Assembly: GCF_001677475.2 (NCBI RefSeq)
Contig: NZ_CP015229.1
DNA: 64,000 nucleotides
Source of the DNA: Escherichia coli
GTDB lineage: Bacteria > Pseudomonadota > Gammaproteobacteria > Enterobacterales > Enterobacteriaceae
Reading direction: 5' to 3' (one strand)
Numbering within the stretch: the first letter of the stretch is position 1; each line of letters begins with the position of its first letter. Made by a program: the position numbers. This document shows, in pieces, positions 36,001-42,000 of this stretch.

Positions 36001-39000
36001 CGAAAGCCAGAACTCCCCGTACACAGACAACGGATAACGGTAAGCAGAACACCTATTTCTCCTCACTGGATAACATGGTTGCCCAGGGCAATGTTCTGCC
36101 TGTTCTGTACGGTGAAATGCGCGTGGGGTCGCGGGTGGCTTCTCAGGAGATCAGCACGGCAGACGAGGGGGACGGTGGTCAGGTTGTGGTGATTGGTCGC
36201 TGATGCAAAATGTTTTATGTGAAACCGCCTGCGGGCGGTTTTGTCGTTTATGGAGCGTGAGGAATGGGTAAAGGCAGCAGTAAGGGGCATACCCCGCGCG
36301 AAGCGAAGGATAACCTGAAGTCCACGCAGTTGCTGAGTGTGATCGATGCCATCAGCGAAGGGCCGGTTGAAGGTCCGGTGGATGGATTAAAAAGCGTGCT
36401 GCTGAACAGTACGCCGGTGCTGGACAGTGAGGGGAATACCAATATCTCCGGTGTCACGGTGGTGTTCCGTGCAGGTGAGCAGGAGCAGACACCGCCGGAG
36501 GGATTTGAATCCTCCGGCTCCGAGACGGTGCTGGGTACGGAAGTGAAGTACGACACGCCGATTACCCGGACCATCACGTCTGCAAACATCGACCGTCTGC
36601 GCTTTACCTTCGGTGTGCAGGCACTGGTGGAAACCACCTCAAAGGGGGACCGGAATCCGTCGGAAGTCCGCCTGCTGGTTCAGATACAACGTAACGGTGG
36701 CTGGGTGACGGAAAAAGACATCACCATTAAGGGAAAAACCACCTCACAGTATCTGGCCTCGGTGGTGGTGGGTAACCTGCCGCCGCGCCCGTTCAGTATC
36801 CGGATGCGCAGGATGACGCCGGACAGCACTACAGACCAGCTGCAGAACAAAACGCTCTGGTCGTCATACACCGAAATCATCGATGTGAAACAGGGCTACC
36901 CGAACACGGCACTGGTCGGTGTACAGGTGGACTCGGAGCAGTTCGGCAGCCAGCAGGTGAGTCGTAATTATCATCTTCGCGGGCGCATTCTGCAGGTGCC
37001 GTCGAACTATAACCCGCAGACGCGGCAATACAGCAGTATCTGGGACGGAACGTTTAAACCGGCATACAGCAACAACATGGCCTGGTGTCTGTGGGATATG
37101 CTGACCCATCCGCGCTACGGCATGGGGAAACGTCTTGGTGCGGCGGATGTGGATAAATGGGCGCTGTATGTCATCGGCCAGTACTGCGACCAGTCAGTGC
37201 CGGACGGCTTTGGCGGCACGGAGCCGCGCATCACCTGTAATGCTTACCTGACAACACAGCGTAAGGCGTGGGATGTGCTCAGTGATTTCTGCTCGGCGAT
37301 GCGCTGTATGCCGGTATGGAACGGGCAGACGCTGACGTTCGTGCAGGACCGGCCGTCGGATAAGGTGTGGACCTATAACCGCAGTAATGTGGTGATGCCG
37401 GATGACGGCGCGCCGTTCCGCTACAGCTTCAGCGCCCTGAAGGACCGCCATAATGCCGTTGAGGTGAACTGGATTGACCCGGACAACGGCTGGGAGACGG
37501 CAACAGAGCTTGTGGAGGACACGCAGGCCATTGCCCGTTACGGTCGTAACGTCACGAAGATGGATGCCTTTGGCTGTACCAGCCGGGGGCAGGCGCACCG
37601 CGCCGGGCTGTGGCTGATTAAAACGGAACTGCTGGAAACGCAGACCGTGGACTTCAGCGTGGGTGCCGAAGGGCTTCGCCATGTGCCGGGCGATATCATT
37701 GAAATCTGCGATGATGACTATGCGGGTATCAGCATCGGTGGTCGCGTGCTGGCGGTGAACAGCCAGACCCGGACGCTGACGCTCGACCGTGAAATCACGC
37801 TGCCATCCTCCGGCACCACTCTGATAAGCCTGGTTGACGGAAATGGCAATCCGGTCAGCGTGGAGGTTCAGTCCGTCACCGACGGCATGAAGGTGAAAGT
37901 GAGCCGTGTTCCTGACGGCGTTGCAGAATACAGCGTGTGGGGGCTGAAGCTGCCGACGCTGCGCCAGCGCCTGTTCCGCTGCGTGAGTATCCGTGAGAAC
38001 GACGACGGCACGTATGCCATCACTGCCGTGCAGCATGTACCGGAAAAAGAAGCCATCGTGGATAACGGGGCGCACTTTGACGGCGACCAGAGCGGCACGG
38101 TGAATGGTGTCACGCCGCCAGCGGTGCAGCACCTTACCGCCGAAGTCACCGCAGACAGCGGGGAGTATCAGGTACTGGCCCGCTGGGACACGCCGAAGGT
38201 GGTGAAGGGCGTGAGCTTCATGCTTCGCCTGACCGTGGCAGCGGACGACGGCAGTGAGCGGCTGGTCAGCACAGCCCGGACGACGGAAACCACATACCGC
38301 TTCAGACAACTGGCGCTGGGGCGTTATATGCTGACGGTCCGGGCGGTAAATGCCCGGGGGCAGCAGGGTGATCCGGCGTCGGTATCGTTCCGGATTGCGG
38401 CACCGGTAGCGCCTGTCACTATTGAACTGATACCGGGGTATTTTCAGATAACGGCGGTCCCGAAACTGGCTGTATATGACCCGACGGTACAGTTTGAGTT
38501 CTGGTTATCGGAAAAGCGGATTATCGATATCAGGCAGGTTGAAACCACAGCCCGCTATCTTGGTACGGCGCTGTACTGGATAGCCTCCGGACCGGATATT
38601 GAGCCGGGCAATAATTATTATTTTTACGTTCGCAGTGTGAATACCGTCGGCAAATCGGCATTTGTGGAGGCTGTTGGCCAGCCGGGTAACGATGCTGAGA
38701 AATATCTCCATTTTTTTGAAGGGAAAATAAACAGCACCCTGCTGGGGCAGGAGCTGAACGATCGTATTAATGCCTCGGCATTGCGCAGTGAAGTTGAGCA
38801 ACTGGAGGATGAGATCAATCAGCAGATAGAGAGTGATATTGCTGAAGTGACCCAAAAAATCGGGGAGACAGAAAACAGCCTCACGCAGCTGGTTGCGAAA
38901 AAAAATGATGAGCTGTCACTGGGTATATCACAGGTGAGCCAGAGAGTGGATAACGTCAGCAGCGAACTCACGCAGACGGTCAGTCAGAGTAATGAGGAGA

Positions 39001-42000
39001 ATGCACGCCAGATAGCGCAGGTTCGCCAGTATGTGGATCAAAAAAGCAGTGAAATCATGACGACAACGGACCAGAAGCTGGGAGATCAGGAGGCCACCAT
39101 CCAGCAGATACAAAAGGTTCAGACGGACACCAGTAATAACCTGAACAGTATGTGGGCCGTGAAACTGCAGCAGATGCAGGATGGTCGCCTTTATATTGCG
39201 GGTATCGGTGCCGGTATTGAGAACACCCCCGACGGCATGCAGAGTCAGGTGCTGCTGGCGGCAGACAGGATTGCGATGATTAATCCTGCAAATGGCAACA
39301 CAAAACCGATGTTTGTTGGTCAGGGTGATCAGATATTCATGAATGAAGTGTTCCTGAAATATCTGACGGCTCCCACCATTACCAGCGGCGGTAATCCTCC
39401 TGCATTTTCCCTGACACCGGACGGAAAGCTGACCGCTAAAAATGCCGATATCAGCGGTAACGTGAATGCGAACTCCGGGACGCTCAACAACGTCACGATA
39501 AATGAGAACTGTCAGATTAAGGGGAAACTGTCAGCCAACCAGATTGAAGGCGATATTGTCAAAACGGTCAGCAAGTCTTTCCCCCGCACGAACAGTTATG
39601 CCAGTGGCACCATCACGGTAAGAATCAGTGATGATCAGAAATTTGACCGGCAGGTCATGATACCGCCAGTGTTGTTCCGTGGTGGTAAGCATGAGAATTT
39701 CAACAGTAATAACCAACAGTCATACTGGTATTCAACCTGCCGGTTAAGAGTGACCCGCAATGGTCAGGAGATTTTTAATCAGTCCACGACGGATGCTCAG
39801 GGCGTATTTTCCTCAGTTATAGATATGCCTGCCGGACAGGGGGCGCTGACACTGACATTCACCGTATCTTCATCAGGAGCGAATAACTGGACACCAACAA
39901 CCAGTATCAGCGATCTGCTGGTTGTGGTGATGAAGAAATCCACAGCAGGTATCAGTATCAGCTGAATTTTATAACCCATAACGGGCGTCAGAAATGACGC
40001 CTTTTTTATTGCAGAAAAGCGAGAGGTAATTATGCGTAAACTTTATGCCGCCATTTTGTCCGCAGCCATTTGTCTGGCCTTATCCGGTGCGCCTGCATGG
40101 GCGTCTGAACATCAGTCCACGCTGAGCGCGGGGTATCTTCATGTCTCGACGAACGTTCCCGGCAGCGATGATCTGAACGGGATTAACGTGAAATACCGTT
40201 ATGAGTTTACGGACACACTGGGTATGGTGACGTCATTCAGCTATGCAGGAGACAAGAATCGCCAGCTGACCCGTTACAGCGATACCCGCTGGCATGAAGA
40301 TTCCGTTCGTAACCGCTGGTTCAGCGTAATGGCGGGGCCGTCTGTGCGCGTGAATGAATGGTTCAGCGCGTATGCGATGGCGGGTGTGGCTTACAGCCGT
40401 GTGTCGACTTTCTCCGGGGATTATCTCCGCGTAACTGACAATAAGGGGAAAACGCACGATGTGCTGACCGGAAGTGATGACGGTCGCCACAGCAACACGT
40501 CTCTGGCGTGGGGAGCTGGCGTGCAGTTTAACCCGACCGAATCCGTGGCTATTGATATTGCTTATGAAGGCTCCGGCAGTGGCGACTGGCGCACTGACGG
40601 TTTCATCGTGGGTGTCGGTTATAAGTTCTGATTAGCCAGGTAACACAGTGTTATGACAGCCCGCCGGGTTCAGGCGGGCTTTTTTGTGGGGTGAATATGG
40701 CAGTAAAGATTTCAGGTGTCCTGAAGGACGGAGCGGGTGAGCCTGTCGTAAACTGTGCGATTGAATTGCGAGCCAGAAGAACCAGTCCGACAGTTGTGGT
40801 TAATATTGTGGCAACCTGTCTTACGGGAAGTGATGGCGGGTATACTATTAATGCTGAGCCGGGATTTTATGATGTATTTTTGTCCCGCTCAGGGCATCCT
40901 CCTGTAAAGGCGGGGGAAATTTATGTTGCACCGACAGATGAGCCGGATACGCTGAATGCTTTTCTGGATGCACCAAAGGAGGGTGATTTACGCCCTGAGG
41001 TAATGAAGCGTTTTGAGGAAATGGTAAATACCGTTGTTCGCTTGTCTGAGCAGGTGGTCAGTGACAGGGAGAGAGCAGAAACAGCTGCTGATGATGCAAT
41101 CAATGCAGCAACATCTGCGGCGGTTAGTAAGGATGAGGCAGAAGAGCTAAAAAATCAGACACAGCAGAGCGCCGAAGCTGCAGCCGGAAACGCACAGCAG
41201 ACGGCACAGGATGTGACGACAACCGCAACGGCCCGTGATGATGCGGAACGTTTTGCGGGTGAGGCAGAAAACAGCGCACAGTCATCAGGCACAGCGCGGG
41301 ACGAATCAGTCGATGCCGCCGAACGCGCCCGCCTTTATCATAATGCCGCATCATCAGCAGCGACCAGTTCAGAACTGTCGGCAAATGCGGCGCTGGGGCA
41401 CAAAAACAGTGCCGCCGAATACGCCCGACAGGCTAAAGCCAGCCAGGATGCAGGTGCAGACAATGCGCAGGAAGCGAAACAGTACAGGGATGAGGCGCAG
41501 CAGATAGTTGATGACCTGAATGCAACAAATGCCTCCACGACAGAAAAAGGTCTGGTGCAACTCTGTAGTGATACGGACAACGACAGCGAGGAACTGGCTG
41601 CCACGCCAAAGGCTGTCAAAGACGTCATGGACGAGGCGAAAACAAAAGCGCCACTGGACAGTCCGGCCTTCACCGGCACCCCAACCACCCCAACCCCACC
41701 GGATGATGCCGCCGGTCTGGAAGCAGCGAACGCAGCGTTTGTGCGCAAACTGCTTGCTGCGCTGGTTGGCTCATCGCCGGAAGTTCTGGACACCCTGAAC
41801 GAGCTGGCAGCGGCGCTGGGCAATGACCCGAACTTTGCGACGACAATCACAAACGCGCTGGCAGGCAAACAACCGCTTAATGACGTCTTAACGGCAATCA
41901 GCGCACTGACGCAACGGGCAGATAATCTTCTGTACTTCAATACAGACGGGAATGCCTCACTGTCTCTGCTGTCAGAGAAGGGCCGCGCATTACTGGCGCA

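Follow-up and report, generated by a model that had tools for sequence, protein, structure and literature searches.

Genomic locus and the state of the prophage

The window analysed, a 64,000-nucleotide stretch of the Escherichia coli contig NZ_CP015229.1, carries a set of lambda-like tail genes in which the order L-K-I-J-lom-stf is colinear with that of lambda, the E. coli N96 prophage, PhiR40_1 and PhiR70_1. Gene J, coding for the central tail fibre or tail-tip protein, occupies 36264..39965 (+) as a single intact 3.7 kb open reading frame of 1233 codons, without a stop or frameshift. It is followed on the same strand by three further open reading frames that match the annotated N96, PhiR40_1 and PhiR70_1 loci in order: lom (40032-40631), the side tail fibre gene stf (40691-42787), and a gene for a tail fibre assembly/DUF4376 protein (42802-43380). 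A break in colinearity with the N96 prophage marks an IS21-family insertion sequence at 32477..34890 (-), in the spacer between L and K, ahead of the K-I-J genes. The element is flanked by a CCCATG repeat, and its IstA and IstB match NF033546 and NF038214.

The insertion may mean that the prophage no longer makes tails. One could go further and regard J as a relic of a defective prophage without current function, given that 2.4 kb of inserted DNA between L and K replaces the region upstream of the K start codon. That reading is rather unlikely, though it deserves some weight: the reading frame is uninterrupted over 3.7 kb and ~99% identical in nucleotide sequence to the N96 gpJ allele, the element lies between genes and may be traversed by late transcription, and the J allele is widespread.

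Comparison of the prophage J protein with lambda J

The prophage J protein is 101 residues longer than lambda J (1132 residues), as an earlier note on this DNA had estimated (about 100). BLASTP aligns residues 1–849 with lambda J at 92% identity; over residues 1–835 the two proteins are likewise 92% identical, and by segment the identity is 98% (residues 1–400), 92% (401–800) and 54% (801–835), so that the note's reading of the first ~800 residues as closely lambda-like holds. This part (residues 1–805, 36264..38678, +) comprises hub domains colinear with the lambda N-terminus and two FNIII/Ig-like domains recognised by Pfam (Ig_J PF24421 and Ig_J_second PF24489). Near its 3’ end, nucleotide identity to lambda declines from 97% to 59% between positions 37975 and 38695, and G+C content falls from ~0.61 to ~0.49 near 38500. 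All four Pfam families matched in the prophage protein (PF24421, PF24489, PF09327 and PF12421) do so at E ≤ 1e-31, and the domain order, two FNIII/Ig-like domains, a predicted helical shaft, a beta-prism and a C-terminal Ig-like receptor-binding domain (RBD), can be set beside the HDs-FNIII-AHS-CSF-RBD scheme of lambda gpJ (PMC11101478).

A long alpha-helical shaft

The additional length is concentrated in a single segment, residues 836–940 (38769..39083, +), which has no counterpart in lambda J in either the BLASTP or the multiple alignment. Its ~105 residues are rich in Q (14 residues) and in S and E (13 each). Searches of Pfam and PDB with this insert returned no significant match; the PDB hits obtained with the insert alone (polycystin-2, a trimeric autotransporter adhesin and apolipoprotein A-IV, all at E ≥ 0.016) were set aside as chance coiled-coil-like matches. 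By sequence comparison, then, the insert has no solved homologue in the PDB. The earlier note had placed it within the receptor-binding region, an assignment that the alignment to lambda’s alpha-helical shaft (AHS) overturns: the insert lies in the shaft, which links the FNIII domains to the beta-prism, and outside the receptor-binding part. In lambda the shaft is a short bundle of three helices joining FNIII-2 to the beta-prism, and it is the element that rearranges on triggering (PMC11101478). In the prophage protein, AlphaFold2 (AF2) models, residue periodicity and the lambda alignment together delimit a shaft of ~142 helical residues (residues ~824–965, 38733..39158, +), referred to below as the long class.

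The shaft is strongly periodic in its hydrophobic residues. Spectral power peaks at 2.54 for a period of 3.63, a value reached by none of 5000 shuffled sequences, and is 1.91 at 11/3 and 0.10 at 3.5, by which a canonical heptad coiled coil is rejected. The earlier description of an inserted, coiled-coil-like, Q/E/S-rich segment is borne out as to composition, and the segment is helical and periodic, but its peak lies at 3.63–3.67 (hendecad or 29-residue) rather than 3.5. The sequence can be parsed into degenerate 29-residue (11+11+7) units beginning at residues 859, 888, 917 and 946; the self-repeat at this spacing has z scores of 2.2–4.0, with the observed score reached by 2–14 of 500 shuffles depending on the split. 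Tandem Repeats Finder detected no DNA tandem repeat at 38600–39250, which indicates that the 29-residue repeat is of old origin and can be recognised in the protein sequence alone.

Structure prediction gives two pictures of this region. The AF2 monomer of residues 790–1233 has a mean pLDDT of 52.8 and low confidence outside the RBD, as expected of an interdigitated trimer, and was used for secondary structure only; it contains helices at 826–898 and 910–962 separated by a break at 899–909, with shaft pLDDT of ~50. A linked-trimer model, whose output covers the extent and confidence of the helices, instead contains three unbroken helices of ~142 residues (model residues 10–151) at a block-mean pLDDT of ~66–90. 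The monomer loop, together with polar core positions at about residues 908–918, would suit a shaft in which the ~100 additional residues double back into a hairpin of helices; the bundle would then be thicker, with six helices, and the fibre barely longer than that of lambda. Such a fold is improbable. Each copy in the linked trimer is one continuous helix, predicted with much higher confidence; the hydrophobic register runs on in 29-residue units across residues 899–909; and a two-helix hairpin would bring the chain back to the FNIII side although it must continue into the prism below. The shaft would probably be a trimeric coiled coil with parallel helices and little curvature. Such a fibre would be ~15 nm longer than that of lambda and would carry the RBD ~45 nm rather than ~30 nm from the tail tip.

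The beta-prism and a recombination joint

Downstream of the shaft, residues 945–1073 (39096..39482, +) form the beta-sheet prism, or central straight fibre, matched by Pfam Phage_Tail_Tip (PF09327, E = 2.7e-31). Its length appears invariant: the YxAGIG-to-NADISG distance is 83 residues in each of the 13 J proteins that were measured. A nucleotide identity profile against lambda reveals a conserved island at 39325..39500 (+), where identity is 86–88% compared with 47–66% on both flanks. Three observations mark this island as the joint at which the shaft and prism recombine with the RBD. First, the Ec08-00022 sequence is 100% identical to the prophage upstream of the island, and its receptor-binding type changes just downstream. 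Second, the junction of the engineered A8 chimera coincides with it. Third, so does that of the engineered 1A2 chimera.

An A8-type receptor-binding module

Residues 941–1233 align end to end with lambda 840–1132 at 54% identity, and both proteins share PF09327 and the C-terminal Ig-like family (Ig_GpJ_C PF12421, E = 6e-36; 39588–39962). An unrelated terminal domain is thereby rejected, and with it the earlier note’s proposal of a different one; at the level of sequence, the domain is a divergent allele of the Ig-like fold that binds LamB in lambda. Strong divergence is limited to the last 133 residues, where identity to lambda is 39%. This also disposes of a lambda-type, LamB-binding RBD assigned by close similarity to lambda residues ~985–1132, as the resemblance there is at the level of the Pfam family only.

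A much closer relative is available. The module at residues ~1083–1233 (39510..39962, +), modelled with block-mean pLDDT of 71–95, differs over its last ~150 residues, downstream of the ADISG junction, from the PDB chain 9wca_J (“A8 gpJ 713”) by a single residue, A1194 in the prophage and T in A8. The published GpJ A8 DNA aligns to window positions 39393–39965 at 95% identity; dropout during PDF extraction would seem to account for much of the discrepancy and for all 10 gap positions. Residue 1194 falls where a predicted RBD loop ends, and the A1194T difference could affect binding. OmpC chains are deposited together with A8 gpJ in PDB 9wcb; our literature search found no paper describing the 9wca/9wcb structures. 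The lambda-A8 chimera, an engineered fusion on a lambda body tested with lambda’s short shaft, is reported to recognise OmpC rather than LamB, the assay being delivery to a lamB ompC double-deficient strain with plasmid-borne OmpC variants; the 1A2 chimera also uses OmpC, with a different range of OmpC variants (Brödel 2024, PMC11338833). A receptor-prediction preprint concerns the J proteins of Drexlerviridae and not lambdoid ones.

A receptor other than LamB, most likely OmpC, is therefore well supported by sequence comparison, in line with the earlier note’s suggestion of a non-LamB receptor: alignment shows a domain that is homologous to the standard LamB-binding domain but far closer to an OmpC binder. 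OmpC use by the exact prophage protein would follow by extension from A8. The prophage J might alternatively still use LamB, or both porins, with the divergent tip merely tuning affinity. The shared PF12421 fold family and an identity to lambda of 47% from NADISG to the end speak for this, yet the 39% identity of the last 133 residues, the deposition of the A8 module in complex with OmpC, and its reported recognition of OmpC rather than LamB in the plasmid-complemented strain make it very improbable.

Shaft classes, modularity and distribution

Shaft spans in the 13 J proteins measured are of 80, 108 or 181 residues only, and each of three tip types is combined with at least two of these shaft classes. 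RBDs of the A8 type are paired with all three lengths, short in P0021, medium in PhiR70_1 and long in the prophage J, and those of the STEC1587/P0053 type with two, P0053 and STEC1587 themselves having identical RBDs on medium and long shafts. J loci number ~12,000 in complete E. coli genomes. By blastn, the long class is found in 770 of the 5426 such genomes searched, and is kept intact across these at 70–100% protein identity. Establishing this distribution needed blastn at distant settings and an exhaustive search of representatives: megablast under-counts the class, matching the insert in the gpJ genes of just 31 genomes (17 of them at ≥99% identity), and a word-indexed protein search with the insert recovered only 15 short E. 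coli fragments, which are uninformative on distribution. Plaque-forming phages carry the long shaft as well, for example PhiR40_1 (1232-residue J, shaft 70% identical). The long shaft and the A8-type tip are common, interchangeable variants in E. coli prophages, and the finding in this prophage is real but ordinary.

Taken together, the data are probably best explained by a normal central tail fibre of the lambda gpJ family built of three exchangeable modules and bearing an RBD that most likely binds OmpC. The first module is the lambda-like hub and FNIII region, the second would be the long-class alpha-helical shaft of ~142 residues in degenerate 29-residue units, and the third the A8-type Ig-like RBD, which would engage the trimeric porin OmpC and not LamB. 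The binding signal would presumably run via the prism to the shaft, as it does in lambda, whereupon the shaft would unfold and flip and the tip would open.

What the length of the shaft contributes is a separate question. It may be a neutral by-product of recombination among J alleles, with host range and adsorption set by the RBD alone. In keeping with this, shaft class and receptor-binding type reassort freely, the A8 module functions on the short lambda shaft, and the identical RBDs of P0053 and STEC1587 sit on shafts of different length. This reading is a serious possibility but falls short of an even chance. Neutrality sits poorly with the restriction of the 13 proteins to three discrete lengths and with the integrity of the long class across 770 genomes, which together suggest selection on the helix; moreover, the lambda shaft is the part that rearranges on triggering.

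A speculative and on balance unlikely extension is that selection has tuned shaft length as the “reach” of lambdoid tail fibres, the gain and loss of 29-residue units producing discrete lengths. If so, the spans of 80, 108 and 181 residues would correspond to roughly 6, 10 and 21 nm of helix, and would match the stand-off of the RBD either to how thick the O-antigen or capsule is or to how long the co-resident side fibres are. Since it is the shaft that triggering unfolds, its length would in addition determine the threshold of DNA ejection, and shaft class would be an engineerable determinant of host range independent of the RBD. An influence of shaft length on adsorption may be supposed but would not surprise specialists. 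We found no paper describing shaft-length classes, nor a report of shaft length being tested for adsorption to smooth or encapsulated strains.

The analysis has two uses. For annotation, the sequence of this prophage allows its tail receptor to be predicted, as OmpC and not LamB; the receptor-binding allele concerned already serves in engineered delivery particles, and its structure with the receptor has been solved. For phage engineering, a by-product is the module map, with shafts of three discrete lengths, a prism that does not vary in length and the conserved joint at 39325–39500, a site of natural and engineered swaps alike.

Comparison with known systems

The prophage protein can be placed beside the closest known gpJ proteins. 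Lambda gpJ (PDB 8IYK/8XCK/8XCJ) shares its gene position, domain order, 83-residue prism and C-terminal Pfam families, and 92–98% identity in the hub and FNIII domains; it differs in shaft span (80 versus 181 residues), in an RBD of 39% identity, and in binding LamB, whereas OmpC is the predicted receptor of the prophage protein. The A8 gpJ chimera (Brödel et al. 2024, Nature 632:877; PDB 9wca/9wcb) has the same last ~150 residues apart from T in place of A1194, but is an engineered protein with a lambda body and short shaft; in the prophage the module occurs naturally, on a J with a long shaft. PhiR70_1 gpJ (1160 residues) is 99% identical in the RBD and 93–97% in the hub and FNIII regions, but its shaft is of the medium class (108 versus 181 residues) and lacks the sequence at window positions 38700–39000. 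PhiR40_1 and PhiR49_2 gpJ (1232 residues) have the same long shaft class (181 residues) with an insert ~70% identical, and carry a 1A2-like RBD, the C-terminal residues being close by eye to the published 1A2 module, that is 56–62% identical to that of the prophage.

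Comparison with lambda J

The prophage tail-tip protein J is encoded by a single intact ORF (36264..39965, plus strand, 1233 aa), of which 38650-39965 forms the 3' third. The earlier note had read this third as a divergent, extended receptor-binding region. Alignment with lambda J confirms the greater length (1233 versus 1132 aa), the close resemblance to lambda over the first ~800 residues and the insert rich in Q, E and S on which that reading was built. Identity to lambda is 98% over residues 1–400, 92% over 401–800 and 54% over 801–835; the insert (residues 836–940, 38769-39083) has no lambda counterpart, and identity is then 65% over residues 941–1063, 73% over 1064–1100 and 39% over 1101–1233. 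By BLASTP, residues 1–849 match lambda at 92% identity before a gap opens in lambda, and lambda 840–1132 aligns with residues 941–1233 at 54%. This alignment, together with Pfam matches in lambda's own order, namely Ig_J, Ig_J_second, Phage_Tail_Tip (PF09327, residues 945–1073) and Ig_GpJ_C (PF12421, residues 1109–1233, E 6e-36), contradicts the proposal of a different terminal domain. Nor is the insert part of the receptor-binding region: the alignment positions it within the alpha-helical shaft, upstream of the beta-prism and receptor-binding domain (RBD). It has no significant match in a PDB sequence search or in Pfam. In lambda the shaft flips upon LamB binding, and residues 841–861 become beta strands (PMC11101478).

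G+C content falls from ~0.61 to ~0.49 at about 38500 and nucleotide identity to lambda drops off along the same stretch, which fits a recombinant 3' end of J. A 371-aa ORF (37194-38309, minus strand) that runs antisense to J where the gene is GC-rich is taken to be a by-product of composition and not a gene.

Receptor-binding module

The PDB sequence search matched J to chain 9wca_J, 'A8 gpJ 713' (entries 9wca and 9wcb), which is lambda-like as far as ADISGS; beginning with [17 protein letters not shown], its sequence is that of this J through to the last residue, save T for A1194. Position 1194 falls where a predicted loop (PAGQGA) ends, within a confidently modelled beta-sandwich. In the lambda gpJ chimeras A8 and 1A2, the C-terminal portion comes from naturally occurring gpJ variants (Brödel et al., Nature 2024, PMC11338833). 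Both were assayed by delivery into a lamB- and ompC-deficient strain with plasmid-borne OmpC variants and were reported to target OmpC, not LamB; for A8, delivery extended to 90% of cells whether the OmpC was that of MG1655 or that of EDL933 (PMC11338833). The supplementary GpJ A8 DNA from that study is 95% identical to 39393-39965; all 10 gap positions and many of the mismatches look like PDF-extraction dropouts. Since 9wcb also holds three OmpC chains, a complex of the A8 module with OmpC has been deposited, for which a literature search found no publication. The RBD of J is an already characterised allele, and the near-identity of its tip to the A8 module makes OmpC the most likely receptor, in support of the earlier suggestion that J uses a receptor other than LamB.

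Shaft periodicity and predicted geometry

The hydrophobic periodicity of the insert peaks at 3.63 with a power of 2.54 (versus 1.91 at 11/3 and 0.10 at 3.5), which was reached by none of 5000 shuffles, and the homologous insert of Escherichia phage PhiR40_1 peaks at 3.64. In rows of 29 (11+11+7; 29/8 = 3.625), the hydrophobic positions of residues 859–974 fall in register, with units beginning at 859, 888, 917 and 946. Self-alignment recovers the 29-residue offset (z 2.2–4.0), at a score reached by 2–14 of 500 shuffles depending on the split. The units (38838-39185) are degenerate, each starting I-[A/S/Q]-[E/Q]-[V/I]. No DNA-level tandem repeat was found in the shaft region, and the repeat is therefore old.

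An AF2 monomer model places helix at 826–898 and 910–962 with low confidence. Three copies of residues 815–968, joined by 70-residue Gly/Ser linkers, were modelled as three unbroken helices of ~142 residues (J 824–965; block-mean pLDDT ~66–90), in an output that leaves out helix orientation. An extended parallel shaft is the reading we favour, if with some reserve. At 0.15 nm per residue it would measure ~21 nm, compared with ~6 nm for the matching part of lambda J, and the fibre would be ~15 nm longer than that of lambda, which spans 29.7 nm from the FNIII domains to the RBD tip (PMC11101478). Like its lambda counterpart, J is expected to form a trimer at the tip of the tail; a straight three-helix coiled coil would extend the fibre, and the Ig-like domain at its far end would be specific for OmpC. 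Triggering would follow the lambda mechanism, with a signal relayed through the prism up to the shaft.

Shaft classes and module exchange

Measured from GKSAFVE to Y[IV]AGIG, the shafts of 13 J proteins fall into three discrete classes: 80 residues (lambda, P0021), 108 residues (PhiR70_1, P0053, P0033) and 181 residues (this J, PhiR40_1, 08-00022, 377323_2f, STEC1587, E10, Z30, P0038). All 13 share a prism span of 83 residues. The steps between classes (28, 73 and 101 residues) approximate 1, 2.5 and 3.5 units of 29 residues, a hint that shaft length changes by whole or half units. A8-type RBDs occur on short (P0021), medium (PhiR70_1) and long shafts (this J and 377323_2f), and the STEC1587/P0053-type RBDs, 100% identical to each other, on a medium (P0053) and a long shaft (STEC1587). 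Long shafts also carry 1A2-like RBDs (PhiR40_1, E10, Z30, 08-00022) and, in P0038, an unrelated C-terminal domain. The 08-00022 gene is 100% identical in nucleotides to the window at 38785-39325, and its RBD type changes at ~39500-39600. Positions 39325-39500, encoding [31 protein letters not shown], form a conserved island with 86–88% nucleotide identity to lambda between flanks of 47–66%. The island looks like a recombination joint, since both the RBD-type switches seen in nature and the fusion points of the published A8 and 1A2 chimeras lie within it. A serious rival to any function of shaft length is that it is a neutral by-product of recombination; conceivable roles are reach through O-antigen or capsule, side-fibre matching or a trigger threshold.

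Of 5426 complete E. coli genomes, 31 have the insert DNA at megablast level and 770 (1135 places) at blastn level, the blastn matches lying without exception in genes whose annotation is gpJ or tail tip. Coverage of the entire 3' region is at least 80% in 10 genomes, of which three are at ≥99%. Phage records gave no insert at megablast level; by tblastn, PhiR40_1 and PhiR49_2 have a version ~70% identical, and PhiR40.1 is in use as a plaque-forming phage. As an allele class the long shaft is common, and sequenced viable phages have it. Distant J-like proteins (1194–1426 aa) have helical regions of at least 100 residues ahead of the MW(A/S)VK motif, so long shafts are not peculiar to E. coli. 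Some carriers of the long-shaft class in E. coli are decaying prophages, as in the EPEC reference strain E2348/69 (L010, E. coli O127:H6, NC_011601.1, 697-4411), whose long-shaft J is annotated as frameshifted (pseudogene). The giant fibre protein P0146 (1977 aa) ends with a J-like shaft-prism-tip module (32% identity, query residues 49–342), preceded by many serine/threonine/glutamine-rich coiled-coil motif repeats alternating with globular domains; the C-terminal module of J thus recurs beyond lambda-type tail tips.

Tail operon and relation to known systems

J is situated in a lambdoid tail operon, where it is preceded by K (34891-35634) and I (35532-36203) and followed by lom (40032-40631), the side tail fibre gene at 40691-42787 and, at 42802-43380, an assembly gene of the DUF4376 type, in an order colinear with lambda and with annotated prophages and phages. 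An IS21-family element (32477-34890; minus-strand genes 32543-33298 and 33295-34794; IstA NF033546, IstB NF038214) interrupts the 10-nt L/K spacer, where it lies between direct repeats of CCCATG that include the K start codon and replaces the sequence just upstream of K. As it separates K-I-J-lom-stf from the upstream late operon, the prophage may be tail-defective though J is intact. The closest relative (L006, E. coli N96, NZ_CM169999.1, 13979-16752), at 96–99% nucleotide identity and with the same J allele, is without this element and has an IS66-family element between J and stf that truncates lom; the same tail-fibre region of sister prophages has been hit by two independent IS elements.

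A literature search turned up no account of the shaft-length classes or of the 29-residue periodicity, and their description is thus modestly new, not a new kind of system. On every feature tested, J belongs to the lambda gpJ family.
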